From positions 28,458,001-28,522,000 of the forward strand of contig NC_073382.1 of the NCBI RefSeq assembly GCF_028641065.1: a DNA stretch of 64,000 nucleotides, written 5' to 3'. Every line of letters begins with the position of its first letter. Within the stretch, counting starts at the first letter, position 1. The stretch comes from Leucoraja erinacea (Eukaryota). Below are positions 5,362-58,789 of this stretch, in pieces. The notes beneath the pieces were generated by a model. That model did no database searches. It saw only the letters and a list, made by a program, of their open reading frames with translations, and was not told the origin of the DNA. Made by a program: the position numbers and the translations under genes.

Positions 5362-5997
5362 TGGGTGCGAATGGTATGTTAGCATTCACAGCAAAAGGAT
5401 TTGAGTATAGGAGCAGGGAGGGTCTACTGCAGTTGTAAAGGCTGTTGGTGAGACCACACCTGGAGTATTGTGTACAGTTTTGGTCTCCAAATCTGAGGAA
5501 AGGCATTCTTGCCTTAGAGGGAGTACAGAGAAGGTTCACCAGACTGATTCCTGGGATTTCAGGACTTTCATATGAAGAAAGACTGGATAGACTCGGCTTG
5601 TACTTGCGAGAATTTAGAAGATTGAGGGGGGAGCTTTTAGAAACTTATAACATTCTTAGGGGGTTGGACAGGCTAGATGCAGGAAGATTGTTCCTGATGT
5701 TGGAGAAGTCCAGGACAAGGGGTCACAGTTTAAGGATAAAGGGGAAATCCTTTAAGACCGAGATGAGAAAAACATTTTTCACACTGAGAGTGGTGCGTCT
5801 CTGGAACTCTCTGCCACAGAAGGTAGTTGAGGCCAGTTCATTGGTTATAGTTAAGAGGGAGTTAGATGTGGCCCTTGTGGCTAAAGGGATCAGGGGGTAT
5901 GGAGAGAAGGCAGGTACAGGATACTGAGTTGGATGATCAGCCATGATCATATTGAATGGCGGTGCAGGCTCGAAGGGCCGAATGGCCTACTCCTACC
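5362..5997 (+). mobile_element. CR1 LINE 3' fragment
   Basis: ORF 5445-5927 VRPHLEYCVQFWSP...RTRGHSLRI...WNSLP plus typical 3' UTR. Confidence 0.92.
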
Positions 5998-10548: not shown

Positions 10549-10835
10549 AGTTCAGGAAAGACATCAGCTTATTTACTTTCTTAACCATCTGAAAATATTT
10601 AACAAGTCCATGAGGATTCTCTCAAACTTATAGATTTATAATAGAAAGTATTGTGATTGAATACCTCTCAGCCTCTTATGGCAACTGCTCCGACTTATCC
10701 TGAAGGGACTGGTGAACACAGCCCAGTCCATCTTCACAGGGTGTTGCATCTGGAAGGCTGGAAGTATTGTCAAGAATGCTGCCTCCCTGGCCAATCCCTT
10801 CTCCCTCCTTCTACCTTCTGAGAGAAAACACAGGA

Positions 10836-13320
10836 GTAAAACAGTTGTAATGGGTGACTTCAATCTACATATAGATTGGGTGAATCAAATTGGCAGAGGT
10901 GCTGAGGAAGAGGATTTCTTGGAATGTATGCGGGATAGTTTTCTAAACCAACATGTAGAGGAACCAACGAGAGAGCAGGCTATTCTAGACTGGGTATTGA
11001 GTAATGAGGATGGGTTAGTTAGCAGTCTTGTTGTGCGTGGCCCCTTGGGCAAGAGTAACCATAATATGGTTGAATTCTTTAATACGATGGAGAGTGACAT
11101 TGTTAATTCAGAAACAAGGGTCCTGATCTTAAAGAAAGGTGAGTTTGAGGGTGTGAGACGTGAATTGGCCAAGAAGGACTGGCAATTGATTCTTAAAGGG
11201 TTGACGGTGTATATGCAATGGAAGGCATTTAAAAACTGCATGGATGAACTACAACAATTGTTCATCCCAATTTGGCAAAAGAATAAATCAGGGAAGGTAG
11301 TGCATCCGCGGATAACAAGGAAAATCATGGATAGTATCAAAACAAAAGATGAAGCGTACAAATTAGCCAGAAAAAGCAGCCTACCAGAGGACTGGAAGAA
11401 ATTCAGAGTCCAGCAGAGGAGGATAAAAGTTTTATTAGGAAAGGGAAAATAGATTATGAAAGAAAACTGGCAGGGAACATAAAAACTGACTGTAAAAGTT
11501 TTTATAGATATGTGAAGAGGACAGGATTTGTTAAAACAAATGTAGGTCCCTTGCAGCCAGAAACAGGCAAATTGATAATGGGGAACAAGGACATGGCAGA
11601 CCAATTGAATAACTAATTTGGTTCTGTCTTCACTAAGGAAGACATAAATAATCTGCCGGAAATAGCAAGGGACCCGGGGGTTAAATGAGATGGAGGAAGT
11701 GAGTGAAATCCAGGTTAGCCGGGAAGTGGTGTTAGGTAAATTGAATGGATTAAAGGCTGATTAATCCCCAGGGCCAGATAAGTTGCATCCCAGAGTACTT
11801 AAGGAAGTAGCTGCAGAAATAGTGGATGCATTAGTGATAATTTTTCAAAACTCTTTAGATTCTGGAGTAGTTCCTGAGAACTGGAGGGTAGCTAATGTAA
11901 CCCCACTTTTTAAAAAGGGAGGGAGAGAGAAAACGGGGAATTACAGACCAGTTAGTCTAACATCGGTGGTGGGGAAAATTCTGGAGTCAGTTATTAAAGA
12001 TGGGATAGCAGCACATTTGGAAAGTAGTGAATTCATTGGACAAAGTCAGCATGGATTTATGAAAGGTAAATCATGTCTGACGAACCTTATAGAGGTTTTT
12101 CGAGGATGTAACTAGTAGGTGGATAAGGGAGAACCAGTGGATGTGTTATATCTGGACTTTCAGAAGGCTTTCGACAAGGTCCCACATAAGAGCTAGGTAT
12201 GCAAACTTAAAGCACACAGCATTGGGTGTTCAGTATTTATGTGGATAGAGAACTGGCTGACAGACAGGAAGCAAAGAGTAGGAGTAAATGGCAGGCAGTG
12301 ACTAGTGGGGTACTGCAAGGCTCAGTGCTGGGACCCCAGCTATTTACAATATATATTTATGATCTGGATGAGGGAATTGAATGCAACATCTCCAAGTTTG
12401 CGGATGACATGAAGCTGGGGGGCAGTGTTAGCTGTGAGGAAAATGCTAGGAGGCTGCAAGGTGACTTGGATAGGTTGGGTGAGTGGGAAAATGCATGGCA
12501 GATGCAGTATAATGTGGATAAATGTGAGGTTATTTTGGTGGCAAAAACAGGAAAGTAGACTGTTATCTGAATGGTGGCGGATTAGGAAAAGGGGAGATTC
12601 AACAAGACCTGGGTGTCATGGTACACCAGTCATTGAAAGTAGGCATGCAGGTGCAGCAGGCAGTGAAGAAAGCCAATGGTATGTTAGCATTTATAGCAAA
12701 AGGATTTGAGTATAAGAGCAGGGAGGTTCTACTGCAGTTGTACAGGGTCTTGGTGAGCCAAACCTGGAGTATTGCATACAGTTTTGGTCTCCTAATCTGA
12801 GGAAAGACTTTCTTACCATAGAGGGAGTACAGAGAAGGTTCACCAGACTGATTCATGGGATGTCAGGACTTTCATATGAAGAAAGACTGGATAGACTCGG
12901 CTTGTACACGCTAGAATTTTGAAGATTGAGGGGGATCTTATAGAAACTTACAAAATTCTTAAAGTGTTGGACAGGCTAGATGCAGGAAGATTATTCCTGA
13001 TGTTGGGGAAGTCCAGAACTAGGGGTCACAGTTTAAGGATAAGAGGGAATTCTTTTAGGACCGAGATGAGAAAATCATTTTTTACAGAGAGTGGTGAATC
13101 TGTGGAATTATCTCCCACAGAAGGTAGTTGAGGCCAGTTCATTGGCTATATTTAAGAGGGAGTTAGATGTGGCACTTGTGGCTAAAGGGATCTGGGGGTA
13201 TGGAGAGAAGGCATGGATGGGATAATGAGTTGGATGATCAGCCATGATCATATTGAATGCAGGCTCGATGGGTCGAATGGCCTACTCCTCCACCTATTTT
13301 CTATATTTCTATGTTTCTAT
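10836..13320 (+). mobile_element. CR1 LINE ORF2 (endonuclease C-terminal part to 3' end), frameshifted
   Basis: VVMGDFN (APE), ILDWVLSN, NYRPVSLTS, QHGFMKGKSCLTNL, GVLQGSVLGP, KFADD; tail (ttctat) repeats. Confidence 0.95.
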
Positions 13321-15249
13321 GAGCTTGAAAGTTTGTACATTAAGATTTAAGAACAGTTTCTTCCCCACGGTTTTCAAACTCCTGAACTAATCACCTTTCA
13401 CACTCCCTTCCCAAAGATGCTGCCATGTCCGTTAACTTTGAACTCTACCTCATTTATACTTTTTTTTACAATACTGCAGATTTTACTCTTTTCTTGCACC
13501 ATTGTGCTGTTTCACACTCATGGTATTTATCAGTACTGCATGTATGCTCTTTACTTTGTGAACTGCAGGTGTATATGACAATAACTAATCTGAATCTGAA
13601 TGAGTTGCTTCAGTAACCCTTGAGGGTAGCTTGGTGGGGAACCTTGTCAGGATGTGGACTTTGAAGATAAATATACCGATTCAAAATTGTAGCATTCTAA
13701 GCTTGCATGACTGAGAGATGAGTTTGATTGAGAGCAGGATAAATGACTGACTACTCTGCACCAGACGTTGAATAGTCTCTGCTTGTGTTCAAGCTGAGCC
13801 ATTGACAACCAAATGCTGCATAGAAGTGGCAATAGGCTTGCCCATCTGGAACCGCGAGGCTCCCAGCTCAGAACATAGCTTTGATTCAGGTTGTGTAGGC
13901 AATTCATTGTGCCTACTCATCAGACACCTTCATCATTGTCACAGTGATTATTTGAATCCTCTGCAGTAAACCTAGGCTGCTTGGACCTACATCAGCCATT
14001 GCACTTCCCTGGTTGCAATCTCCTTGCTCTTGTGATTCATCAAGCACAAAACCTGTGAACATTTCACTAAATACAGCAGTGTTATTAGCTGAGTTGCAAA
14101 GTGAATGAGAGTGCTCCCTCAACTCTTCAGCTTCACTGCCTTCAGATTCTCTAACACAGCTTGGGCCAGTGGAGATATTGGGCATCAAGAGAGAACAATT
14201 TTTTTGGGTAGTCAGGTTGCAGTGAAGTGGGATAGGATGTGGAGGGATGTAACTTGCACAGGTTGTGGCATCGGGGATGGTGCCGGGTTCGTCGGTGACC
14301 ACACCTATATTCGCATTAGGGTGAACTCACATGATATGTTTTATTTACAGTGGTAAGAAAGTCCAGGACTAATTGGGGGCGCTATCTTTTGCTGTCGGGG
14401 CGCACGTGCGATGGTGCTGCCGATCTTGAGCTTGTTCTAGCAGTTTGGTCACAAAGGAGGAAGCGTGGCGATCTCAGGCTTCTACCTGCTGTTCATCCTT
14501 GCATCGAGAGGAGATGCTGGCAGCCTCAGGTTTACCATGGTGGCTCAGCTTTGGAGATGCAGTGCTGGCAGTGTCTGGATTATTCTGGCGGTTCACTCTT
14601 AGCTTCTGTGTGGGCACAGTCACTCATTGTCCATGGGCAAGACACTGACATCTCAGGCTTGCTCCAGCCACTAAGTCTTAGCCTCAGTAGAGATACTGGC
14701 TGTCTAGGGCTTGTTCCCAGCAACCCAGTCTTGCCACACAGTGGTACTGGTTGTCTCAGGATTGTTGCCGTGGCTGCATTCCGCCTGCAGGGATCTGAAG
14801 GCAAGCAGCAACTCTGACACTATCTCGTCGTGCCATGGACCCAGATCACCTCCTCCATCAGGCTATCAGCAGAGAGCAGAGGCCGCCCCAACTGAAGTCC
14901 CATCACCCTACAGAACCTCCATGCCCTCAACTTCTATCATCAGGAAATACATCTGGGATCACATTCCAACTACATGGCATCTCAACCTAGAATTATATCA
15001 CTGCTTAATTAACATCACTTGATTTGAATGTGTAGGGAGCAATGCTGCAGAGGTATGTATAGTTTGATATACTTGCCAAAATATGTTGGCTTTATTGGCA
15101 AAGCCATCATTTCTTAATAAAAAAAACACTATTATTTGTAATTTATTTCCCTGACATTCTTTGATATGAATTTATTCAAACATTGCTGATTTTTAAAATT
15201 CTGGTAATGGAAAATGATGCAGGAAAATAATAATGGAAATAACAAGGAA

Positions 15250-16197
15250 ATACTCCCTCTTCACCTACGACTGCACACCTGTACATGGTACTAACACCAT
15301 CATCAAGTATGCAGATGATACAACAGTGATTGGCCTCATCAGCAACAACGATGAGTTGGCCTATAGGGAGGAGATCCAGCTCCTAGCAGCATGGTGCGCT
15401 GACAACAACTTGGCCCTTAACTCCAAGAAGACCAAGGAGCTCATTGTAGACTTCAGAAGGTCTAGGAGCGGCACGCACACCCCCATCCATATTAACGGGA
15501 CGGAGGTGGAACGTGTTTCCAGCTTCAGGTTTCTGGGGGGCAATATCTCCGATGACCTCTCTTGGACACACAATTACTCAACACTGGTCAGGAAGGCTCA
15601 CCAGTGTCTCTTCTTCCTGAGGAGACTAAAGAAGGTCTATCTGTCTCCTCAGATTCTGGTGAACTTCTACCGCTGCACCATCGAGAGCATCCTTACCAAC
15701 TGTATCACAGTATGGTATGGCAACTGCTCTGTCTCCGACTCGAAAGCAGAGGGTGGTGAAAATTGCCCAACGCATCACCGGTTCCTCACTCCCTCCATTG
15801 AGTCTGTCCAAAGCGAGCGATGTCTGCGAAGGGCGCGCAGCATCGTCAAGGACTGCTCTCACCCCAACCACAGACTGTTTACCCTCCTACCATCCAGAAG
15901 GTCCTACAGGTCTCTCCGTTGCTGGACCAGCAGGTCCAGGAACAGCATCTCCCCTGCGGCTGTTACATTTCTTAACTCTGTACCTCGGTGATTGCCAATC
16001 AGCCCACCCCCCCGGATACTCCTTCCCCCAGAAAAATTGCACTACTACGACTGTATGTATGCATATATATTTATTGCTCATATTCTATGTTCGCTCTTCT
16101 GGGGAGATGCTAACTGTATTTCGTTGTCTCTGTACTGAACTGTACTCCTTCCCCCTGCACAATGACAATAACGTTTGAATCTGAATCTGAATCTGAA
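15250..16197 (+). mobile_element. Rex1/Babar LINE 3' part
   Basis: YSLFTYDC...KYADDTTVIG...KTKELIVDFRR...FYRCTIESIL; (tgaatc)n tail. Confidence 0.92.
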
Positions 16198-17139: not shown

Positions 17140-17270
17140 GTAGGCACAAAGAAATGCAGATCCTGGTTTACCAAAAAAGACACAAAATGCTCGAGTAACT
17201 CAGCAGTTGAGGCAGCATCGGTGTAGAACATGGATTGGGGACGCTTTGGGTCAGGACCCTTCTTCCAACC
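17140..17270 (-). mobile_element. Penelope-like terminal fragment with decayed hammerhead core
   Basis: Reverse complement reads ggaagaagggtcctgacccaaagcgtc...gatgctgcctcaactgctgagttactc. Confidence 0.7.
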
Positions 17271-18301: not shown

Positions 18302-18374
18302 TGCCCAAACCTGGAATTAAACCAGGGACCTTTAGCTCTTCAGTGTAACAATCTCCCAACCAAGTTCTTTCAGC
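18302..18374 (-). pseudogene. tRNA-Phe(GAA) pseudogene
   Basis: 73 nt colinear with vertebrate tRNA-Phe (GCTGAAAGAACTTGGTTGGGAGATTGTTACACTGAAGAGCTAAAGGTCCCTGGTTTAATTCCAGGTTTGGGCA); about 14 substitutions by hand count, including the A/B boxes; anticodon GAA retained. Confidence 0.88.
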
Positions 18375-22929: not shown

Positions 22930-23380
22930 TTGTGTAGGAAGGAACTGCAGATGCTGGTTTACACCAAAGATAGACACAACATGCTGTTGTAACTCAGCAG
23001 CTCAGGCAGCAAATCTGGAGAAAAGGAATAGGTGAAGTACCGGGTTGAGATCTTTCTTCAGACTGCGAATCAGGGGAGAAGGAAATTAGATGTATGAAAA
23101 GGTACAGAACAGATCAGAGCTGGCCAAGGAAAGGTGGAGCCCACAATGGTCCATTGTCAGCTGTGCAAAAAGTAATAATGAAGGGATTCAAGTAGTGAAA
23201 CTAGCAGGTTGACTAGGGTGGGGAGGGATGGAGAGACAGGGAATGCAAGGGTTACTTGAAATGAGAGAAATCAAATTCATAACGCTGGGTATGAATTAGA
23301 GAAATCAAATTCATAAGCTGCACAAGCGAAATATGAGGTGATGTTCCTCCAATTTGCATGTAATTCTTGGGCAGTGAACA
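22930..23380 (-). mobile_element. Penelope-like element 3' end (ORF C-terminus, 3' UTR, decayed hammerhead)
   Basis: Minus-strand frame CKLEEHHLIFRLCSL...PSVMN...FSHFK* resembles the C-terminus of PLE GIY-YIG domains; then gtctgaagaaagatctcaacccggtacttcacc and the family tail. Confidence 0.8.
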
Positions 23381-27465: not shown

Positions 27466-27509
27466 TGTGTAGGAATGAACTGCAGATGCTGGTTTAAACT
27501 GAAGATAGA
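27466..27509 (-). mobile_element. Penelope-like tail stub
   Basis: tgtgtaggaatgaactgcagatgctggtttaaactgaagataga, same family as 22930 and 56222. Confidence 0.7.
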
Positions 27510-28535
27510 TGGTTAGGGTGGGAGGGGTCTTTGATGATCTTCCCGGCCCGTCTCAGACACCGTTTTTGGTGGAGGGCATCCATGGCAGGGAGCGGGACAC
27601 CGATGATGTACTGAGCGATTTTCACCACCCGTTGTAGTGCCTTCCTGTCCGCTATGGTGCAACTGCTGTACCATACCGTGAAGCAAGTGGTCAGGATGCT
27701 TTCGATGGTACAGCGGTAAAAGTTGGTCAGGATCTGGGGGGACAGGTGAGCTCTCTTGAGCCTCCTCAGGAAGTAAAGGCGCTGCTGTGCCTTTTTGATC
27801 AGCTTGGAGGTGTTGAGGGACCAGACAGATCCTTCGAGATGTGTACCCCGAGGAATTTGTAGTTGGAGACGCGCTCCACCTCAGTCCCGTTTATATGGAT
27901 GGGGGTATGTCTGCCCCCTCTGTTCTTCCTGAAGTCAACAATAATTTCCTTCGTCTTCTTGGAGTTGAGGAGAAGGTTATTGTTGGCACACCAGGTTGTC
28001 AGGTGCTGGACCTCCTCCCTGTAGGCTGACTCGTCATTGTCACTGATCAGTCCTACCACCGTGGTGTCATCGGCAAGTTTATTGATGGCGTTGGAGCCAT
28101 TGTTAGGGATGCAGTCATGGGTGAAGAGGGAGTAGAGGAGAGGGCTGCGCACACAGCCCTGTGGCACGCCGGTGTTCAGTGTTATGGTGGAGGAGGTGAG
28201 GTTGTTGACCCTAACAGACTGTGGTCTGTTGGTGAGGAAATCCAGTGTCCAATTGCAGAGGGAGGTGGAGATGCCAAGTCCACTGAGTTTGGTGATCAAG
28301 CTGGCAGGGATGACAGTGTTAAAGGCAGAGCTGAAATCAATGAACAGCAACCTGATGTAGGTGTTATTGCTGTCCAGGTGGGCCAGGGCAGAGAGTAGGG
28401 CCGCCGATATGGCGTCCTCTGTAGACCTGTTGGTCCGGTAGGCAAACTGATGGGGGTCCAGTGTGGGGGGGAGGCTGGCGTTGAGGTGAGCCAAGATCAG
28501 CCACTCAAAGCTCTTTGCAATGACAGGGGACTGAT
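27510..28535 (-). mobile_element. Rex1/Babar LINE RT
   Basis: ORF 27799-28554: [42 protein letters not shown]. Confidence 0.93.
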
Positions 28536-28539
28536 GCAA

Positions 28540-29152
28540 TTGTAAAGAAGGCACATCAGCGATTCTACTTCCTGAGAAGATTAAGGAGATTCGGCATGTC
28601 GAAGAAGATTCTCCTAAACTTCTACAGGTGCATGGTAGAGAGCATTCTGATTGGTTGCATCATGGCCTGATTCGGCAACTTGAACATCCAGGAGCGAAAA
28701 AGACTACAAAAAGTTGTGACCAATGCCCAGTCCATCACCGGCTTTGACCTCCCCACCGTCGAAGGGATCTGTCGTAGTCGCTACCTCAAAAAGGCAGCCA
28801 ACATCATCAAGGACCCACACCACCCTGGCCACACACTCATCTCACCATTGCCATCAGGAAGAAGGTACAGGAGCCTGAAAACTGTAACGTCCAGGTTCAG
28901 AAACAGCTTCTTCCCTACAGCCATCAGGCTATTAAACACAACAATGAATAAGCTATGAGCTCTGAACTGCAAAAGACTATATTAATATTTGTTATTTGCA
29001 CTATATTTGTTATTTATTGAACTTTTTCTTTTTTCCCCTTTATATACAATGCTTACATATTCACATATTCTGTTGTGCTGCAGCAAGTAAGAATTTCATT
29101 GTCCCATCAGGAACATATGATAATAAAACACTCTTGGCTCTCTTGACTCTTG
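28540..29152 (+). mobile_element. Rex1/Babar LINE 3' end
   Basis: IIKDPHHPGHTLISPLPSGRRYRS...RFRNSFFP; (ctcttga)n tail. Confidence 0.9.
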
Positions 29153-30740: not shown

Positions 30741-30862
30741 GGAAGAAGGGTCTCGACCAGATACATTACCCATCCCTTCTCTCCAGAGATGCTGCCTGTC
30801 CCGCTGAGTTACTTTTTATGTCAATCTTCGGTTTAAACTAGCATCTGCAGTTCCTTCTTATA
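30741..30862 (+). mobile_element. Penelope-like short insert
   Basis: 13-bp near-TSD catacaataagtt / catacaattagtt (30728-30740 / 30863-30875); begins inside the hammerhead core (gaagaagggtctcgacc). Confidence 0.78.
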
Positions 30863-31124: not shown

Positions 31125-31825
31125 TGGACCAGCACATAATTTCTTGGACCACAGGAGGCTGAGGAGGGATGTTACAGAAGTGTATAAAATAATGAGGGGA
31201 ATAGTTAGGGTGAATGTGAAAAGTCATGGGTTTTTTTTACAGTTCAGTTGTGTACCGAGGTACAGTGAAAAAAAATTGTCCCATGCTAAACAATTGAGCC
31301 ATTTATAGTGTATAGGTACATGATAATGGAATGATGTTTAGTGCAAGATAATGCCCCTGTCCCACTTAGGAAACCTGAATGGAAACCTCTGGAGACTTTG
31401 CGCCCCACTCAAGTTTTTCGTGTGGTCCCCGGGGGTTCCTGGAGTTTTTTTTCAGTCTCCCTACCTGCTTCCACTACCTGCAACATCTGGAAACCACGTG
31501 CAACCTCCGGGAACTGCACGGAAACCTTGGGTGGGGCGCAAAGTCTCCAGATGTTTCCGTTCAGGTTTCCTAAGTGGGACAGGGGCATAAAGCCAGCAAA
31601 GTCCGATCAAGGATAATCTGAGGGTCACCAATGAGGTTAATAATAGTTCAGGTCTGCTCTCTGGTTGTGGATAGTACAAGAAGTACCTGGAAAGATACAT
31701 AGATAGGAAAGGTTTTGTGGTATATGGGCCAAACGGGCAAGTGGAGCAAGTGTAGATGGGCATCTTGGTTGGAATGGACAAGTTGGGCAAATGGTCTGTT
31801 TCCATGCTGCATGACTCTACAAACT
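31125..31825 (+). mobile_element. CR1 3' fragment interrupted by an antisense Rex1-type tail that hosts a MITE
   Basis: RRLRRDVTEVYKIMRGI at about 31150; CR1 tail at about 31680-31820; intervening sequence similar to 42690-42950. Confidence 0.6.
31352..31587. mobile_element. Tourist-like (PIF/Harbinger) MITE
   Basis: TIR tgcccctgtcccacttaggaaacctgaa... extending about 90 bp imperfectly; TAA TSD at 31349-31351 and 31588-31590. Confidence 0.92.
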
Positions 31826-35059: not shown

Positions 35060-35310
35060 GTGACACAAAATGCTGGAGTAACTTAGCGGGTCAGTCATCA
35101 TCTCTGGAGCGAAGGAATAAGTTGGAGAGAAGGAGTGTGTGAAGTTTCGGGTTGAGACACTTTTTCAGACTGATGTCAGGAGAGTGTGTGGGAGAAAGAT
35201 AGAATGCAGTCGGAGACAGTAAGGCTAGTGGGAGAACTGGGGAGGGGGAAGGGATGGAGAGAGAAAGCAACGGCTATCTGAATTTAGAGGTCAATGTTCA
35301 TACCGCTGGG
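35060..35310 (-). mobile_element. Penelope-like 3' end inserted in CR1
   Basis: Minus strand PSGMNID ORF end, then gtctgaaaaagtgtctcaacccgaaacttca (decayed hammerhead) and tail. Confidence 0.78.
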
Positions 35311-35755
35311 TCTCCACGCTCCCCTGTAAACTGACCCAGACTCCACTCCCGCAAAATATATTCTTACAACTGTGGGCCCCTGGTTCTGGACGCGCCAACT
35401 CCCCTCAACCCCCTGACCATGACAGACGAAAAACATCATTCCCCTCTGCAGCCTACCTCACATTCCCCAATCCTCTAAGAATTTGTCCCGGAAGATTGTT
35501 TCTATGAGATCACCTCTTTCATCTTTCTCCCATCCTAAATCCTCCCTAGCGATGTACAAGACCCTCAGTCGACCCCGTTCTTTCATCATTTTCTCCAGGT
35601 CAGTCCCCCCCTCATCCCCAGGAATTAACCTGGTGAACCTCACGCTGCCGTTCTTCCTCAATAGCATAAAGCTCCTTCCCTCATAACTTAGGAGACCAAA
35701 TTGCACCCCAATACTCCAGGTGCAGTCTCACCAGGACCCAGTACAACTGCAATTG
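35310..35755 (-). mobile_element. CR1 continuation, indel-rich
   Basis: RFTRLIPG and LIET remnants with dense indels. Confidence 0.7.
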
Positions 35756-36257: not shown

Positions 36258-37110
36258 TTATGGCATGTGTACGGAACGGGCAGGAGGAGGAATACAGGAA
36301 CTTGACCAGTTCCTTTTGTGCCTGGAGTGAAGAGAACTGTCTCATCCTGAACACAACTAAGACTAAAGAGATGGTGGTTAACTTTGGCAGGTCCAAGCTC
36401 CCCTTTCAGCCGGTCAACGCTGCTGGGGCTGACATTGAGGTGGTGCAGACATATAAATACCTTGTAGTGCACCTTGATAACAAACTGGACTAGTCTGTCA
36501 ACTCTGACTTCCTCTACAAAAAAGGCCAGAGCAGACTCTTTTTCCTCAGAAGGCTCAAATCCTTCAATATGTGTAATGACATGCTGCACATGTTTTACAA
36601 CACTGTGGTTGCAAGTGTTATTTTCTACGCTGTTGTCTGCTGGGGCAACGGCATTAGTGCAAAAAACACCAAGAAGCTGGTCAAACTGGTTAAACGAGCT
36701 AGCTCAGTGCTGGAGGGGAGAGTAGACTCTGGGATGGATGTGCTTGAGAGTCGTATGAGGCACAAGGTACAGGTCATCCTGAAAAACCCCGGGCACCCCC
36801 TCCATGTAATTCTGGAGAGTCAAAAGAGCACTCGGAACAACAACCGGCTCCTCTCCCTGCCCTGTAGAACGGAGCGGTTCAGGAGATCCTTCACCCCTGC
36901 AGACATTAGATTTTATAATTCGGACCGCTGGGCTGTAGGGGGATGCATTCTTGCAATTTTTAATTTTTAATTGTTAATTATTGGTCTTTTTAAGTATTTA
37001 TTGCTCTCAGTTTATTCTATGTATTTTCTGTCTGCGTTCGTTTTGAATCTGTGGGTTTGTTGGTTGGGGGCTTCTGGACATCAGAATTTCCCCTGAGGGG
37101 ATCAATAATG

Positions 37111-37157
<47 letters not shown>
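36258..37157 (+). mobile_element. Rex1/Babar LINE 3' part with (TTA)n tail
   Basis: KTKEMVVNFGR, YKYLVVHLDNKLD, FYAVVCWG, CRTERFRRSF. Confidence 0.9.
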
Positions 37158-37177
<20 letters not shown>

Positions 37178-37506
37178 TCTCAAAGTAAAACCCTTTGGAT
37201 TGAGAAAATTACATAACTTTGAAACTGGAAACTGCTGCCTATGATTGAGAGAAAGTCTCAATAAGCGGTTGGTTAACAGGCACCAAAGTGTTTCTGGGGA
37301 CAAGAGAAGCCTCTAGTGGTACAAATTGTCCACTGCACCAACAATATCATTTTGTTGGTCAAGAAATTCTTACATGCTGCATGTTTAGAGAATAACTATA
37401 TAACGATCAATAAAACAATGTTAATAATCTGTAATACTAGGTAATTAGACATAAATAATACAAACCGAAGTCTGTTGTGCAAAACAAAACAAAGTCCATG
37501 GTAGAT

Positions 37507-37730
37507 ATGTGTAAAGAGGTACTGCAGATGCTAGTCTACACCAAAGATAGACACTAAGTGCTGGAGTAACTTTGGGTCGAGCAGCATCTCTGGAGAAAAT
37601 GCATAGTTGACGTTTTGGGTCAAGACCCTTCATCAGACTGGGCATCAGACTGATGAAGAGTCTCGACTCAAAAAGTGACATATTCGTTTTCTCCAGTGAT
37701 GCTGAGTTACTCCAGCATTTTGTGTCTATT
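37507..37730. mobile_element. inverted pair of Penelope-like ends with two hammerhead cores
   Basis: Minus-strand copy then plus-strand copy; near-TSD catggtagat / catagtagat (37497-37506 / 37731-37740). Confidence 0.82.
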
Positions 37731-37739
37731 CATAGTAGA

Positions 37740-38575
37740 TTATAGTTGTTGATGTAGTGGCTAGTGTTGTGCAGTGTTTCACAGCCTGACAGTTGCTGGG
37801 AAGAATCTGTTCTTGAACATGGAAGTTATGGTTTTCACACTCTTCTACCTTCTTCCCAATCATAGTAGCAAGATGAGAGTGTGTGGCAACGGTGGCGTGG
37901 CTCAGATGATATCATGATTTTTTTAAGGGGATCCCGTAGATCCCTTAGATGGCAGGGCGGTCAGTACTTACCATGGACCAGGCAATGAGTGCTACTTTCA
38001 CATCCTCCTTTGTACCTGGGTGTTTGGGTTACTGAGCCGGGCCATGGAGAAAAGTCAATAATGTTTTCTACCATAGTTTCAATAGAGTATCAGTGACTTA
38101 CCAAATCTCCTCATCATGTGACAAAGTAGAGGTGTTAATGAGTTTTCTTTATGATAGCATTGATGTGTTGGGCACAGGGCAATCTTAAGTGATATGCATG
38201 TCCAGGAACTTGATGCCATTGACTCTCTCTGCCACACTCTTGTCAATGAAGACAGGTTCATGTCTCCCCTTCATTTCCTAGTCAACAAGCAGCTCCTTGA
38301 TCTTGCTAATGTTGAGGACACAATTATTGTCTAGCACCATTAAATCAGATTAGCAATCTCTCTCCTGTACGCTGACTCACCATTTCACATCTTTCATCCA
38401 CAGTGGTATTGTTGGTAAAATTAAATATGGCGTCGGAGCTGTGATTGACCACGCAGATTAAGTATAAAGAATAGAGTTACTCCATTGAGTATAAAGGATT
38501 GAGTGCACAGCACTGAGGCGTTTCTGTGTTGATGGTTATCTAGGAAGAAGTGTTGTTGCCAATTCGTATTAATTG
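37740..38575 (-). mobile_element. old Rex1/Babar LINE
   Basis: Reverse complement of decayed RT and C-terminal Rex1 sequence. Confidence 0.7.
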
Positions 38576-39134
38576 TATTCATTGTAAAACATTGTACTCA
38601 TTATAATAATTTAACGAATTGTAGCCTCAAATCTAGAAACCTTAGAGAATTGAACAGATTACAGCATGGGCCAGTGATGTTAATTCATTCTGTTATTGCC
38701 TGCAGTTGATTGTGTTTGTTGTTTTTCACACATTAAACAAAATTTGAATGTGGTTGCAAGTTGAGAAATGACTGATAAATCTAGCTTTCCTTTCATTTGA
38801 TTTCAAATAAGGGTCATGAAAGTCAAGATTATTTAATTATCAAATGTTCCAGCAATGGAACAATGAAATTCATGCACTGCAACTTAAACTACCCATTAAG
38901 TCATTAACACATAGATAAATACATCATTATCAATAACACAATGTTAATAACCGTAATAATAGGTAACCATGATAATGCAAAACCAATGTATGTAGTGCAA
39001 ACAAAGACACAGTCTGAAGAACATCATAGTTGCAGAGGTACTGTTTATGGTTGTGGAAAGTTCAAAAGCCTCATGGTTTCTGCAAATATGTTGTTCTTGA
39101 ACCTGATGGTTTTCAGACTCCTATACTTTGTTTG

Positions 39135-40250: not shown

Positions 40251-40354
40251 TGGACACAGTGAGACTCAGTCTGAAGAAGGGTCTCGACCTGCCTCACCTG
40301 CTGAGTTACTCCAGCATTTATTGTCTATCTTCGAGATAAACCAGCATCTGCAGT

Positions 40355-40635
40355 TAGAAACATAGAAACAGAGAAACATAGAAAATAGGTGCAGGAGGAT
40401 GCCATTCGGCCCTTCAAGCTAACACCGCCATTCATTGTGATCATGGCTGATAGTCCCCAATCAATAACCCATGCCTGCCTTCTCCCCATAACCCTTAAGC
40501 TCTATCTAACTCTCTCTTAAATCCATCCAGTGACTTGGCCTCCACTGCCTTCTGTGGCAGGGAATTCCACAAATTCACAACTCTCTGGGTGAAAATGTTT
40601 TTTCTCACCTCAGTCTTAAATGGCTTCCCCTTTCT
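40355..40635 (-). mobile_element. CR1 3' end
   Basis: (agaaacat)n tail and reverse complement of the CR1 3' region. Confidence 0.88.
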
Positions 40636-41451
40636 TTTCTGCACATTTGTAATCTCATATTAGCTTTTAATAAACTCACCAGGACCCCATTAGTAGATCC
40701 AACCTAGTTACTCCAAAGTGGATCTCCCATCCAAATGTCTATATAACTATCTACCAATGACAAATTTTGATAACACGACTAATTTAACAAGAGACTTGAC
40801 AAGGAGTCTCGATGCAGGTTTTCAACCCAAATCATCCATCACTCCTTTACCTCCAGAAATGCTGACTGATCCATCAAGTCCCTCCAGCATTGTGTTTTGT
40901 TTTGTTTCTGACAAGAAACTCCATTGTTTGTGCAGCAGGTGAGCTTTTTGCTTTACTGCAAACCAGCAATGGAGTGTCATGGGCCAGATAGTTTTATATC
41001 AGTCCCAGATTTTGTTTTGAATTCTTCATTTATTAAATGTATTTATTCTCTGCAGGAGTAATTGCCAGTGACATGCCTCATCAATCTTGTGGAACTAAAT
41101 GCAGATGATATTCTCTTTGTGCTGGGCTTTGATACCTTAATTGCTGGTTATGTGTTGCCATGGGGCAGTAGTCTTACATTATCCCTTCTGAAGGGTTCAA
41201 GGTACTGGGCATTTACTTTATTACTGACTTGAATCAATTGTAATGCCTACAATATGGATGGCATTATTAATCAACACAGCTTGAACCACTGAAAAGGTTT
41301 ACACATGTGAAAAGCACATGTAGGAATATAAGAAAGAAATCTGTTATGGGATAAATAAATACAAGATGGTCCATATAAAAAAATCGGAGAAGAACACGGT
41401 GGCACACGGAATTCTGCATTTTACATATATGGCAAAATGGAACTATAATTT

Positions 41452-41763: not shown

Positions 41764-41873
41764 ATGTACAATAGAGCATTGTAAGAGAGATGATGGGAGC
41801 CAAGTGAAGTCAAGTTTATTGTCAAATGCATAAGTATAGATACAATGTAAGGTACAGATACAATGTAAATCTC

Positions 41874-42125
41874 CAATAGATAAAACATGCTGGAGTAACT
41901 CAACGGGACAGGCAGCATTCTGGAGAGTAGGAATGGGTGACGTTTCGGTTTGGGACCCTTCTTCATACTGATGTCAGGGGAGTTTGCGGTACAGAGATAA
42001 AATGTAGTCGGAGACAGTAAGACTGGTAGGAGAACTGGGAAGGGGAGGGGATGGAGAGAAAGGGAAAGCAAGGGCTACTTGAAGTTAGAGAAGTTTCATC
42101 TGCAGTTATTTCCTACACAATGTAC
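41874..42125 (-). mobile_element. Penelope-like 3' end with short inverted tail
   Basis: TSD tgtaaatctc (41864-41873 / 42126-42135); hammerhead-derived gtatgaagaagggtcccaaaccgaaacgtca on the minus strand. Confidence 0.8.
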
Positions 42126-42284
42126 TGTAAATCTCTGTTGTAGCAGCATTACAGGCACAAACTCAAACAATGAAAAATAAATTATACACAAATTGTGCAT
42201 GACATTCTGTAAGACAGTAAAATGAAAATACACAGTGCACCGAAACAAGACAGTTCAAAAAGTTAATTAGAAATACAAAAGGTA

Positions 42285-42685
42285 TTCAATGTAGTCAAGC
42301 AGGGGACAAGCATAGAGTGGTCCCATGTGAGTGCCCACAGCTATACCTTTGATTTCAAGAAAATGCAAGGAATTTAAAAAACAGTTATTGATGGTGAGGA
42401 CTAGTTCTGCCAGGCCGAGGAGAGTATTAATTAAGGGGAACTATTTGGGTCTCTGTTCCAGGAAGAAACTGAAGGTCGTAAGGCCTTCCTGATGGGAAAT
42501 TGAGGTGTAAAGGACAATCCATGGTAGTGTGGGCTAAGGAATTTGAAGTTATTGAAGTGGTGGAGACTGTGAGCCATATCCAGGAAGTAAGTGGAAAGGG
42601 ACTAGACAAGGCAGGACAGGACAGATTCAAGGAATGTGGAGTTAAGTTTAATGTGGCAAGTGCAGACAGAAACAATGGGTCTGCA
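42285..42685 (-). pseudogene. Penelope-like reverse transcriptase fragment
   Basis: Manual minus-strand translation (with stops/frameshift): RPIVSVC...TMD..LYTSISHQEGL...LAELVLTINN...EIKGIAVGTHMGPLYAC, matching PLE RT motifs RPIVS and G.AMG..M.P.YA. Confidence 0.8.
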
Positions 42686-42689
42686 GGAC

Positions 42690-44170
42690 ACTTTCAGTTC
42701 AGTTTCAGTTTACTTTATTGTCATGTGTACCAAGGTACAGTGTAAAGCGTTTGTTTTGTGCTAACCAGTCAGCAGATAGACAATACATGATTACAATTGA
42801 TCCATTTAGAGTGTATAGATACATGATAAGGGAATAGCGTTTAGTTCAAGGTAAAGCCAGCAAAGTACGATCACGGGAAGTCCGAGGGTCACCAAACAGG
42901 TGGGCAACAGTTCAGCACTGCTCTCTGGTTATAGTAGGATGATTCAATTACCTGATGACAGCTAGAAAGAAACTGTCCCTGAATCTGGAGGTGTGCGTTT
43001 TCACATTTCTATACCTTTTGCCTGATGGAAGAGGGGAGAAGTGGGAGTGGCCAGGGTGCAACTCATCCTTGATTATGCTGGTGGAAGGAGCTGGATCATG
43101 GACTTTAGGAGGGCACATCATCCGAGGACGTACACTCCATTGAGTATAAATGGGGATCCTGTGGATAGGGTGAACTGTTTTAAATATCTGGGAGTCCACA
43201 TCTCTGAGGATATGACATGGTCATCACACGCCTCAGCACTGGTGAGTAAGGCAAGGCAGCGCCTTCACCACCTCAGGCAATTGAGGAAATTCAGAGTGTC
43301 TCCGAGGATCCTCCAGTGCTTCTACGCAGCGGCGGTGGAAAGCATCTTGTCCGGGAACATTACCATCTGGTTCGGGAATTGCTCTGCCAAGGACAAGAAG
43401 ACTCTGCAGAGAGTAGTGCGTTCGGCCGAACGCACTATGGGAACTTCACTCACCCCCCTGCAGGAACTATACAACAGGAGGTGCAACTCCAGAGCAAACA
43501 AAATCATGAGAGACCTCTTCCACCCCTGCAACGGACTGTTCCAGCCGCTATGGTCAGGCAAACGCCTCCGTTGCCATGCAGTGAGAACGGGGAGGTTGAG
43601 AAGGAGTTTCTTCCCAGAGGCAATTCGGACTGTAAACGCCTTTCTCACCAGGGACTAACTCTACAGAACGTTTTTCCTTCTATTATTTATTATGTAAAAT
43701 AATATGTGTGTTATGGTTGTGTTTATAATTTGTTTGGTTGTTTTGTTGTTCCGCGAGCATTGCCACTTTCATTTCACCGCACATCTCGTATGTGTATGTG
43801 ACAAATAAACTTGACTTGACTTGACTTGACTTGACTTGGTCTTGCCTAGTCAGCATGAGGAGTCAATAGAAGGGAGGCTGGTTTGTGTGATGGTCTGGGC
43901 TTCATCCACAATTCACTGCGATTTCCTGCGGTCTTGGATGGAGCTGTTCCCAAACCTAGCTCTGATGCATCCTGATAAAATGCTTTCTCTGGTGCAACTG
44001 TAGAATTTGGTGAGAGTTATAGTGGACATGCCAAACTACCTAAGCCTTCTAAGGAAGTAGAGGCATTGGTCATGCTTTCTTGGTCGTTGCTTCAATAGGG
44101 GTGGTTCAGGAAAAGTTGTTGGTGATATTGACTCCTAGGAATATTACATTTTCAACTATCTCTACTTCGG
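42690..44170 (-). mobile_element. Rex1-type 3' fragment interrupted by a younger Rex1
   Basis: HPGHSHFSPLPSGKRYRNVKTHTSRFRDSFF; resumes after 43836. Confidence 0.75.
43076..43836 (+). mobile_element. Rex1/Babar LINE 3' part
   Basis: IMDFRR...FKYLGVHISED...VESILSG...RSFFP; (cttga)n tail. Confidence 0.92.
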
Positions 44171-44174
44171 TCAA

Positions 44175-45100
44175 TGCAAACTTAGCTTGGTGTCAATTTG
44201 ACAACCTCTCCCTCAATGTCAGCAAAGCAAAGGACTTCAGGAAGCTTGTTGACTTCAGGAAGCATGTTGGGGTATTGCTTCAATTGTACCAAGGTGAAAA
44301 TGGCTGAGACCTTCAAATTCCTAAGCATAAATATCATCAATAATCTGTCCTGGTCTAATTATGTCAAAGCTACAGCCAATAAAGTACACCAATGCTTCTA
44401 CTTCTTTAGGAAGCTAAGGATGTTTGGCATGTCTCCAAAGACCCTTACCAACTTTTACAGATGCCCTGCAGAAAGCATACTAACTGGTTGCATCAGATCT
44501 AGGTTTGAGAATGGCTCTGTGGCTCAAGAAGGACTGCAAGAAATTCCAGAGAGTTATGAAGCCCACTACATAAACTTGAGTCCCCACCTGTAAATTACTA
44601 AATAATACAATCTGAAATCCAAGATCATCTTTAATCAGTATTTAAACTATAGCAGTACAGCAGGTTGTTAGTTGTTCAAACATCATGACCTCTTCCAAGA
44701 CTGACCAGTGCAGGAAGTGGGTGTTAGTATAAATTGAACAGTAGGGTGGGGTGAGTGATGCTATTCTACTATGATTGGTTCCCATGCATAAACCAATCTA
44801 CACCACCTTTGACTCTATGTACACTCAATGCTGCCCAGGAAAGCAGCCAAAATAATCAAGGTCCTTTTTCATCCCATTCATTCCCTCTTCTGTCCTCTCC
44901 TGATGGGCAGAAGAGCCAAAAGCTTGAAATCCCGTACGCTAGGCTTAGAAACACTAGACTCAGGAACAGATTCTTCCCCTCTGTTATTTGACTGCAAAAC
45001 AGTACTCCAATAAGCTCGGGTCTAGTCATGATCTTCCAACTGACATTGCAAACATTGGAATTTTTCCTCTGGAACTGTAACACTACAATGCTGCAACTCT
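44175..45100 (+). mobile_element. old Rex1/Babar fragments
   Basis: WCQFDNLSLNVSK, TLTNFYRC, RLRNRFFP remnants. Confidence 0.7.
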
Positions 45101-48664: not shown

Positions 48665-48732
48665 AAACTGCAGGTGTTGGTTCAAACACCCAAAGATAGA
48701 CACAAAATTACTCCAGAATTTTGTGTCTATCT
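48665..48732. mobile_element. PLE-derived fold-back hairpin
   Basis: Perfect 16-bp inverted repeat agatagacacaaaatt / aattttgtgtctatct (48694-48732). Confidence 0.75.
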
Positions 48733-49547
48733 CATTTTAAGTCACATCACTATTGAAAGGTATTGATGAATCTCAGAGGAATTGAACTGTCACAGTAATG
48801 CCTCAAAGTTAATTTAAATATACATCACTATCTTATTTTCTGCAATTGATGTTTATGTGCATTTCTCTGGATTAATTGTGCTATTAAAATCTCATAAACA
48901 CATTCAATTTAAATAAGAATGATATACCAATGTTTCAGCATATGATGTGTGATTAACTGACAAATAATTTTCTTGTTAAAGACAGACATTTAATGAGCTG
49001 TCACTCATGCTACCTATAAAACCAACAGGATGCCATTCATTTTATAATGATTTGTTTTATTTCTGACTTGCTATGCATGCACAAAATCCTGTAGTTTCTG
49101 TTTATATGTATATAATTTTTGTGTGTGAAGTGATTTGCATGCCCAATGTGAAAGAGGCAGTAACTTAAAGTGACATATATAGTATAGTTTGGATTTTGTG
49201 ATTTTTTTTCCCCATTTAGATAATAAAATAGAAATGTTATAATTTAACATTTTTTTTATGTGTTAAAACTTGGATTAGGTACACGTATCCTTTGCTGGAA
49301 AGGCCAACAACACAAATCAAATGTTGATGTTCATACTATAAATCTTTGAAAGTGCCAGGACATGTTGAGAGAATGGTTAAACATATATGTAGGATATCAA
49401 GATTCATATGTAGAGGCATATGGTACAAAGCAGAAAGATTACTAAAAGTTTTATAGAATGCTGGTTGAGCCCGAAATGGAATACAGCCATCAATTTCAGT
49501 CACCAGACTTTAGTAGGGTGTGGATCAATTTCAGTCACCAGACTTTA

Positions 49548-50867: not shown

Positions 50868-50965
50868 AATCTGTTGAAAGATCATTACCCTGAAATGTTA
50901 ACTTTGTTTCTCTCTTGCATATGTTGACTGGCCTGATGCATTTTCCATTATTTCTTGCTTTTATT
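50868..50965 (+). mobile_element. older Penelope-like end with decayed hammerhead
   Basis: ctgttgaaagatcattaccctgaaatgtt... has the same CUGANGA...GAAA layout and tail as the younger family. Confidence 0.45.
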
Positions 50966-53774: not shown

Positions 53775-54691
53775 GTGCGGTGACCTTTCCATAGATTGTC
53801 CTCTGATTCGTGAACCATTGCATGAGTTGGTCATCTGCATTAAAGTAGAGTGGTGGAATTAAATAGAACTTCGAGCATTGAATGTCTTCCGTTATATTAA
53901 TAGTTCTGGACAGTAAATAGAGGCCTGTTTAAGAGCCTGCCCTCCGCATTTAAGGTGATATTTCTTGTGCTTCTTGGATACCTGAGCACAAGTTTGTAAA
54001 TACAGATAGCCTTTTTTAAGACAAGCATTACAAGTGAAAATTGCCTGCCCTCATGCATAATTTATTTTATGGCTCTTGGAGACATGATTCCAACTTCAAA
54101 CACAGAGCGTGTAAAAACTGTCTGCGACTTTTTTACTTTGCAGCTGCAGGGCACAGACACACTTATAAGATAAGTTTAAGTTAACTGCCAAAACAGCACT
54201 TTTACATGAATAGCAATGTATGTTTTTAAATCATGGGTAACATTAAATGGTTTTCCTGTTGATGTGCTAATATATCGTTATATATACTCACATGAGCACC
54301 CGGGATACTCCGCAGCCTTCGTCTCCAGCAGGTTCCGTTTTTTCTCACTGTTTCTGTAAGCCTCTCTGAATTTATCGTAAAGAATTTTGTTGAATTGGTA
54401 CCATTCTACAAGTTCCCCCTCTTGTTCCCTGGTGAAGTTATATGGCCTTACCTTCTGTCTTCTTCCCTTTATATACGCGTCTGTTGAGGCTATTCCTACA
54501 ATGGCTACTGGGGAGGCAATCTGAAATCCACCTTGCTCACCCTCTCCCTGCTCCAAGGAGCCCACAGGCAGTGTTATCTGTGGCATCTCCTGTTGCCTCT
54601 CCACCTGTCTTTCTTGCTGCATCTCCTCCTGCATGGCAAAAACTTTTCTGACATGCTTTACCCCCTTTCTTTGAGCTTTTCTGGGAGCCAT
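53775..54691 (-). pseudogene. Harbinger MADF/Myb-SANT DNA-binding protein, spliced and 3'-truncated
   Basis: Exon 54691-54292 (MAPRK...FTREQEGELVEWYQFNKILYDK...YRNSEKK), GT-AG intron 54291-53835, exon from 53834 in frame: YDQLMQWFTNQRTIYGKVT. Confidence 0.82.
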
Positions 54692-54810
54692 CTCTGCAAG
54701 TGTTCCAGTGAAAAAGATTATCCAACAATAACAATGAGGTGGGATGTCCTCGATGGACACATGTTCCATTGGCGATATTGAGACCACCTTTTTTACTCAC
54801 CTTCTGTCCC

Positions 54811-56221: not shown

Positions 56222-56365
56222 ATGTAGGAAGGAACTGCAGACGCTGGTTTAAACTGAAGATTGACACACAGGTCTGAAGAAGGGTCTCGACCCGAATAGG
56301 TCACCCATTCCTTCTCTCCAGAGATGCTGCCTGTCTCGTTGAGTTACTCCAGCATTTTGTGCCAA
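56222..56365. mobile_element. Penelope-like short insert (inverted tail plus hammerhead-bearing end)
   Basis: 15-bp TSD tgccatggggtgaat (56207-56221 / 56366-56380); ctgaaga-a-gggtc-tc-gaccc-gaa at 56274-56296. Confidence 0.85.
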
Positions 56366-57043: not shown

Positions 57044-57133
57044 TGTGTAGGAAGGAACTGCAGATGCTGGTTTACCCCAGCATTTTGTGTTTGTCTTCAA
57101 TGTAAACCAGCATCTGCAGTTTCATCCTGCACA
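57044..57133. mobile_element. PLE-derived fold-back hairpin
   Basis: tgtgtaggaaggaactgcagatgctggttta ... taaaccagcatctgcagtttcatcctgcaca. Confidence 0.78.
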
Positions 57134-58789
57134 TGCTGTCACTTTAGCTGGGCCGCTTTGTGAATGGGGTAAGAAAGACTTTGGTGAGATTTTATTCCAC
57201 AATCATGATGTTTTAGGCTCCCATGTACAACTAATGGCTAAGGCCTTCGGTGAAATATCCTAGCAGTGTGTTGCTTTAGCACACCTTATCCAGCACTGTG
57301 GGATTTTTAGCCTGTAATATCTCATGGGCACATCAGTAAGAAAGCTCGGGATAAAAGTAACTATATGTTGAAATAGAAGAGATGTATTCGAGAGAGGAAC
57401 TCCCTTATGATAAATTTTGAAATCTCAGTTAGATTTCTAATTGCAGCCATGATGTTATGCAAAGATATTCTAAATTTAAACTGAAAATACTGGTAAAACA
57501 CAATGGGTCTGCAGCATTTAACCATATAACCATATAACAATTACAGCACTTTAATTCAGCATTTAAATGCGTAATGCACAGGAAACATAATAGGTATGTG
57601 ATTCTGACAACCCACATTAAAACATCATGTAACATTTACGTTGCTATTTTCTATTGTTTTTAATTCTCACTGATAAACTTTTCAAAATAAAATTTTAAAT
57701 TAATGGCAAGAATCTCAAAATAGTTTTAATGTTTCAATTTTTGCCATGTTTCACTGGAATTTATATGATTTGTTTTATTCTGTCCTTTTATCTGATGCTA
57801 AGTTTTGCTTGGTGGCAACAGAAGTTGATAGTGCAGGGGTTACCCTTGGGTGAAGGTAAAGTTCACCCCAAGTTGCCCTCTGAATAACCTTTTGCAATAG
57901 TTGTAAATAGTCAAAACAAGTCATAAGAACATGCTGTGTTCCACAATAGACCACTTCAGTCCACGGAAGAATGACCTTTATTGGTCTGGGAGATTTGTCA
58001 TTAAAGCCTTGCTGTTCATATGCTAATACTGCCAGCTCTAATTGGCAACAGAATGTCCAAAATGATATTCTTACGTCAATTATAATAACAACCAGTGACC
58101 TTCAGTAATATGAGAATTCAAGTAAAAATGCAAGAGTGTTGAGTCTGAAAGAAGTTAGGAGTAAAGAGTATTTATTTGTGGTCCAAGCTTGAAATTTTAT
58201 ATCCCAAAGCTCACATCAGGAACTAATGTGTCATGACGCCTCAGAAATTCTCATCAATTAATTTTAACAATCCTACAGGGTATGCTGACCCAATGGCCGA
58301 ATTCCTGATGTGCATATTCAAAGTGTGCAGCTTAATACAGGGAACACCAGGCTTGTGAAACCTGCCTTATATTGATTCATACTTGAACATATCAGGGTAA
58401 TTCTAAACACATGATGAACATTGTTTAAATAACATACTTTTGTAAATGTTCACAGTTGAAGAAATTTCTAATGTTTTGAGTTCGTCACAATTTTGTGTAG
58501 AAGTAAACTTAGATTCAGATTTTTATTAGCTGCATAACTGTTTAAATATACTGATTAATCACTTTGATACAGTTTTTTCCACAGTGGGCTTTCTTCTATT
58601 GCAAATTGAAGCTAAAGTTTGCTGGTGCAAACCGTTTTCATATACCCATATACGTGAGGAAAGTGGCAATTTGGCATAACCAATAGATGACACTTTGATG
58701 CTGCCTAATTTAAGCAGTTAAAAGCAAAACTTAATGTGGCAATCTCTCAATGTGTAGGGAACCTTTCTATTTGATTCTTGTCAACATCA

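Follow-up and report, generated by a model that had tools for sequence, protein, structure and literature searches.

The locus at 37507-37730 of the window (the whole stretch of DNA analyzed, 64,000 nt) is a single 224-bp insertion of two head-to-head pLTRs of a Penelope-like retrotransposon, each arm containing a decayed core of a minimal hammerhead ribozyme (Table 1). The locus is not a working ribozyme, is predicted to form a long imperfect hairpin if transcribed, and has no evident function. Very probably, what remains here is a fossilized Penelope-like element (PLE) insertion, in which a hammerhead-bearing pLTR entered as an inverted, truncated double copy, decayed neutrally and acquired by chance an A-U pair in stem II.

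Table 1. Features of the inverted pLTR pair, of other family copies and of the neighboring reverse transcriptase fragment (positions in the window).
Feature	Coordinates	Strand	Details
Left target-site duplication, 10 bp	37497..37506	+	9/10 identical to 37731-37740
Minus arm, 5'-truncated pLTR copy	37508..37648	-	nhmmer E 7e-37
3' tail extension of about 38 nt, minus arm only	37508..37545	-	plus arm without tail
Decayed minimal hammerhead, minus arm	37609..37636	-	C3 at 37636, C17 at 37609
Head-to-head junction, arms overlapping as quasi-palindrome	37631..37655	.	immediately upstream of the two cores
Plus arm, tailless 5'-truncated pLTR copy	37640..37730	+	nhmmer E 2.6e-26
Decayed minimal hammerhead, plus arm	37650..37677	+	C3 at 37650
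Right target-site duplication	37731..37740	+	9/10 identical to 37497-37506
Family copy with G12>A and A15.1>G; truncation apparently within the core	17152..17267	-	
Long copy: ORF C-terminus remnant followed by tailed pLTR; core with A13>G, A14>U	22931..23355	-	
Solo copy truncated inside core; 13-bp duplication (12/13)	30741..30862	+	
Long copy: ORF C-terminal remnant followed by pLTR; core with G8>A	35060..35313	-	
Family copy with 3' half of core deleted	40262..40355	+	
Degenerate copy absent from the earlier note	40802..40900	+	E 1.4e-10
Long copy (C3>A), inverted tail 42097-42120, 10-bp duplication; reference for read placement	41876..42120	-	
Penelope-like reverse transcriptase fragment	42273..42691	-	tblastn E 6e-32
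Distant old relative, core broken	50870..50955	+	pairwise scoring vs random tiles
Second inverted insertion: inverted tail and least diverged copy	56222..56364	+	perfect 15-bp duplication

An earlier note on this DNA had described an inverted pair of cores at this locus, with A-U in place of G-C in the plus-arm stem II, and we found both as it placed them. The pair has the structure of an inverted pLTR insertion, with truncated arms lying head to head, a palindromic overlap, a tail on one side only and a target-site duplication on the outside; the score of the latter is modest evidence, since it was reached by 2% of 1500 random intervals (P 0.02). The junction contains a 13-bp self-inverted match and two overlapping profile matches (37651-37520 and 37634-37744), with only 13 nt separating the cores and no ORF between the repeats. 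The tail of the minus arm also aligned in the copies at 17267, 23061, 30740 and 40271, and 2421 RNA reads of run X24 carry it as a loose end. The two arms are 75.5% identical over 94 columns, differing at about 25% of them; the minus arm differs from the family majority at 13 of 88 positions, and the plus arm has an internal deletion of 10–12 nt. U7, G12>A and a third departure from the majority are common to both, which suits a single template or a later conversion, and this sharing of three departures is not unique to these arms, as it is seen in other pairs of copies too.

Inverted pLTRs have been reported to overlap by 15 bp, with an optional 31-bp tail, duplications of 8–10 bp and palindromes at the junction (PMC3846280), and the insertion structure described in bioRxiv 2021.04.23.441226 is in agreement. 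The pair shares with the endonuclease-containing PLEs of these reports an overlap of about 15 bp, the junction palindrome, a tail of 30–40 bp on one end and a duplication of 8–10 bp; unlike their inverted pLTR insertions, it has no ORF in between and both arms are truncated at the ribozyme. The inversion cannot bear the weight that had been placed on it, because the inverted arrangement is the usual insertion structure of these elements. There are four further head-to-head arrangements in the window (42097-42120, 48666-48735, 56222-56364, and 57044-57134), which makes a total of five, and target-site duplications of 10–15 bp flank four of the ten inserts tested, with the other six lacking them.

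The majority of the nine core-bearing copies reads, at the sequence level, as a complete minimal type I hammerhead core: C3-A9, an extra A, G10.1-C11.1, G12-A15.1, a 4-nt palindrome and C17 are all present. As had been proposed, the family consensus keeps CUGANGA, GAAA, and NUH, both among the nine window copies and in four read or contig runs, and its majority includes the extra nucleotide after A9 and the palindromic helix III. The consensus CUGA(A/U)GA drawn by eye needs correction at position 7, which is A in seven of the nine copies; U7 appears only in the pair and stays below 10% in all four runs. Stem II, which had been drawn with a 2-nt loop, is better read as 4 bp with a 4-nt loop because a loop of 2 nt cannot close; it lies within the range of 3–7 bp, is closed by G10.1-C11.1, and 85.7% of its cells are paired. 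Helix I of the majority has 2 bp (U-A and G-C), with 0–3 bp in individual copies and 3 bp in only one of the nine, and is thus shorter than the 3–7 bp of the published descriptor (PMC4209133). However, Fig. S3 of that paper includes cases with a 2-bp helix I, each with two G-C pairs, so that the majority falls outside its search descriptor and not outside the wider set presented there. The change A2.3>G was below 10% in DNA runs X1 and X9, and a minority with C1.3>U may exist. The sequence of the 3' arm of stem II recurs in the bases located 3' of the cut site. In predictions, the majority monomer mostly adopts a competing fold, and stem II has a probability of 1–8%. Scoring against Rfam, which the earlier note had suggested, did not retrieve any hammerhead among the six matches obtained for the whole window at E up to 10. 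About 10–25 nt after the cut site (e.g., 56302-56325) there is a pyrimidine tract leading to AG, with an ATG close by, which resembles a splice acceptor followed by a start codon; PLE pLTRs hold an intron end and the start of the ORF.

A degenerate core pattern matched nine times in the window, against 0.72 expected, and none of 100 shuffles reached this number. Seven of the eight other sites previously assigned to the family are among the nine matches, and the eighth (50871) is a distant relative: it was missed by the nine-copy profile, which produced 21 matches in the window at E up to 1, including several 3' fragments, and as high a score was reached only by random tiles (20 and 21 of 1500, with two references) that lay on or overlapped known copies. 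The suggested frequency of one ribozyme motif every few kb amounts to about one copy per 6–7 kb. It also holds that no copy is fully intact: a scan of both strands of the window with a re-implementation of the published RNAmotif descriptor (PMC4209133, Fig. S7) gave no matches, and dropping the stem I requirement did not change this. In the least diverged copy (56274), there is a 1-nt insertion after A14 together with 15.2>G, and the palindrome is broken. The decay of the copies is neutral, because cores change as often as flanks (8/90 vs 67/604 for non-CpG changes, P 0.72) and CpGs change more often than other positions (18/67 vs 75/694, P 0.0006). The 5' ends are clustered: six of the nine core-bearing copies (17267, 30740, 37636, 37650, 40271, and 56274) begin from about 12 nt before to 2 nt inside the core, and none begins at the cut site.

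At the pair, the minus-arm core has an intact stem II, U7, G12>A and a helix I of 1 bp. In the plus arm, G10.2>A (37659) and C11.2>U (37668) replace G-C by A-U in stem II, and the core additionally shows G12>A, 15.2>A, C17>G, and U2.1>A, the last of which breaks the first helix I pair. Neither arm has the intact core expected of an active hammerhead, with G12 and a position 17 other than G: G12 is the general base of the hammerhead (PMC6155905), and G at position 17 is barred because the published descriptor requires NUH. Folded arm on arm, the locus gives a predicted hairpin of -109.7 and -104 kcal/mol (z -10 and -12), within which stem II would have a probability of about 1e-10 or less. The idea that the ribozyme acts as a dimer does not apply to the pair, where the two same-strand copies that this needs are missing; a same-strand dimer is impossible because the arms are on opposite strands and pair with each other. 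When the minus motif (37597-37646) is folded in isolation, stem II is predicted with P 0.99, with a helix I that is shifted and extended by 5 pairs into the junction and a mispaired core; this is probably a matter of chance.

Seven stem II positions are changed in five of the nine copies; two of them form the A-U pair and the other five, in four copies, break pairs. The observed covariation was matched by 50 of 500 shuffles, which is not significant. Likewise, when positions were mutated independently at the rates observed, one or more compensatory pairs appeared among nine copies in 21% of 200,000 simulations, a value that is slightly high because flank columns of two truncated copies were counted as lesions, and in 9% when the remainder of the stem was also required to be intact. 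The A-U change also introduces a C-A mismatch in the long arm-on-arm hairpin. The change from G-C to A-U most likely arose by two ordinary transitions once the copy was already dead; given the shuffles, a P of about 0.21 and the presence of G12>A and C17>G in the same copy, the significance that had been attached to a compensatory change is not sustained.

A first alternative, which we regard as unlikely, is that the A-U pair was inherited from a sister subfamily, where selection acted on it as long as the ribozyme was active, with the two arms derived from two templates by a template jump. Such a subfamily may exist, because one contig piece of run X1 pairs the 3' stem variant of the plus arm with an intact 3' half-core; moreover, three variant places of X1 (one C>T, two G>A) are outside the 40 rows listed, and consensus families rich in covariation have been reported (PMC4209133). 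Conversely, neither stem variant is among the 40 variant rows listed, the minus arm retains G-C, and the departures common to both arms (U7, present at below 10% in each of four runs, G12>A and a third one), together with one shared duplication, suit one template. It is quite improbable that the double change arose in one DNA step, with stem II as an inverted repeat in which one arm templated the other and without selection. Quasi-palindrome correction is a mechanism that copies one arm of an inverted repeat from the other, the plus-arm stem and its closing pair form a perfect 5-bp inverted repeat, and the junction is rich in palindromes; however, chance is sufficient (P about 0.21) and five single changes in other copies remained uncorrected. 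Co-option of the locus as a functional RNA, whether a selected ribozyme or a regulatory hairpin, is very improbable, since the strong predicted hairpin and the folding of stem II in the isolated minus motif, with its shifted, extended helix I, are opposed by A at position 12 in both arms and G at 17 in the plus arm, by arms that differ at about 25% of columns and a compensatory change that puts a C-A mismatch into the hairpin, and by the fact that any inverted repeat yields such a fold.

The initial suggestion that the family represents PLE pLTRs carrying a minimal type I hammerhead is supported by remnants of an ORF end, by their ranks in profile searches and by the core. Three copies extend 205–290 nt upstream of the core into such remnants, with 74–82% identity over the shared sequence. 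With a profile for the PLE C-terminus (21 of 34 PLE-type proteins), two remnants ranked first and second among 6,384 tiles, although their individual matches were not significant (E 1.5 and 2.7); a first C-terminal profile, made with seven proteins, did not detect them. The loose-end consensus of the contigs at 42094 runs into the same ORF-end motif. ORF-end remnants, each of them weak, precede three of the nine cores, and the reverse transcriptase (RT) fragment nearby is a separate insert. Among named proteins, one of Chiloscyllium punctatum is the nearest to this fragment (54% identity, E 6e-32), which points to a cartilaginous fish. The fragment is on the same strand as the copy at 41876-42120; it is a neighbor and no proof of linkage, because it lies outside the duplication of that insert. 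A 57-aa RT fragment gave no match by word-seeded search or in Pfam, and a full HMMER scan found 184 relatives. Among the long RT homologs scanned, a C-terminal GIY-YIG domain was found in seven of seven and an RT domain in six of seven, with four each at the Pfam cut-off, and four have an extra Cys motif before the endonuclease that is absent from the window; we take this motif to indicate the Neptune/Nematis type rather than Poseidon. In the window, we found no complete element in which RT and endonuclease are connected to this pLTR. An exact-pattern scan with the 3' part of the pLTR retrieved 0 loci in viral, prokaryote-genome and metagenome contigs, as expected because this is an animal repeat.

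The copy at 41850-42130 was compared, at 80% likeness, to two RNA runs and one contig set with the best-matching species label, plus one contig set from another organism; the RNA runs were read to about 5% and 1%, and the evidence on variants is limited to the 40 rows listed, so that the core may have further minor variants. Matches were obtained for 14,895 of 12,895,792 and 15,953 of 17,596,208 RNA reads, and for 36,349 (of 26.4 million) and 28,241 contigs; with 14,895 of 12.9 million RNA reads matching one 281-bp copy, the family is very abundant. The position-3 lesion of the reference is replaced by C in about 91–92% of reads or depth in the four runs, stem II is restored in the read and contig majority, and loose-end consensuses with an intact 3' half-core were found in all four. 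G12>A, at a CpG site, ranged from 12 to 22%, with 17–22% in RNA reads and 12–13% in contig depth. The higher values in RNA were considered as a sign of cleavage and rejected, because non-core variants shift alike (18% vs 5% at 41927; 14% vs 2% at 41932). Read ends do not pile up at the cut site in the two RNA runs, from libraries not made for such ends, and depth in X24 shows no step there (3,585/3,067 vs 3,532/3,068), a weak test since most source copies are decayed. X24 depth drops about 14-fold from 41960-69 to 41980-89, partly owing to subfamily differences in the upstream sequence. In run X22, single-cell reads over 41880-41970 are about 7:1 on the strand nominally opposite the ribozyme; an A-rich loose end suggests internal oligo-dT priming. 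For 36950-38900, which includes the pair, no RNA data set was listed as a match, and this carries no information about expression.

The fossil-insertion reading implies the following course. In an active parent, the pLTR would follow an ORF for RT and GIY-YIG and carry the minimal type I hammerhead; by analogy with known elements, cleavage by this ribozyme may be weak and take place in a same-strand dimer formed through the 4-nt palindrome or with the aid of an element protein. Reverse transcription would be initiated 3' of the ribozyme, from either of two sites separated by about 38 nt, so that every copy with both a core and a 3' end would derive from uncut RNA. Judging from the structure of the pair, synthesis probably ended immediately 5' of the core, and another copy, inverted and 5'-truncated, was attached head to head at the quasi-palindrome, after which both arms would have decayed neutrally. 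It is also conceivable, if doubtful, that in the dominant PLE family helix I has shrunk to 2 bp and the competing fold predicted for the majority wins, so that the hammerhead would no longer cut and the core would be kept as a stop or template-switch signal for reverse transcriptase. If true, this role would explain why 5' ends cluster where the core begins, and why a G12-dead template may have given rise to the pair.

The kind of element, its ribozyme and the inverted structure are already in print. Metazoan minimal hammerheads cut weakly, as same-strand dimers (PMC4209133; reviewed in PMC6765202), and those of metazoan PLEs (Cervera and De la Peña, 2014; PMC4209133) share with the family the type I core, a nucleotide located between 9 and 10.1, G10.1-C11.1, the palindromic 15.2/16.2 without loop 3 and, probably, the location 3' of the ORF. 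They are likewise mostly solo truncated copies, with opposite-strand pairs separated by 100–700 bp instead of the 13 nt found here, and there is no cartilaginous fish among the 40 species in Fig. S3 of that paper. For the Poseidon element PAc of Anolis, it is reported that the ribozyme needs protein and is dispensable for insertion in vitro (PMC11167929). As in our family, two 3' end points define the tail of PAc and RNA-seq reveals no ends at its cut site; PAc, by contrast, is an active element with assay results. Non-LTR retrozymes (bioRxiv 2026.07.22.740005), reported in one chondrichthyan, are also non-coding, pLTR-related hammerhead repeats, but they are same-strand tandem units and our copies are dispersed or inverted; the window contains neither two or more consecutive same-strand units with complete motifs nor any complete motif (0 found). 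A search confined to papers located none devoted to this family, which may be listed in the supplements to that preprint. The family, probably chondrichthyan, is therefore an addition to the class described in 2014, and its departures of interest are the 2-bp helix I and the 5' ends that cluster where the core begins. Its complete core, short helix I of 2 bp and great number of copies make it good test material on the role of PLE hammerheads, suited to asking whether cleavage matters for transposition.

The rest of the window is dense in retrotransposon relics. By eye, LINE-like RT/endonuclease ORF fragments occur at 2321-3953 (+), 5439-5927 (+), 10661-11452 (+), 15218-15991 (+), 27494-28659 (-), and 43026-43658 (+), and a 172-aa frame at 54278-54796 (-) presumably resembles a MADF/Myb-like DNA-binding protein of DNA transposons. 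Rfam also gave a weak match to the C/D-box snoRNA SNORD126 at 57441-57517 (+) (31 bits, gathering 55, E 0.023), which has box-like motifs and may be a real intronic snoRNA, and a weak tRNA-like match of 23 bits at 18302-18374 (-), possibly the tRNA-derived head of a SINE. Close inverted repeats unrelated to the family are found at 31351-31588 (98 nt, 86%) and 43941-44517 (130 nt, 77%).
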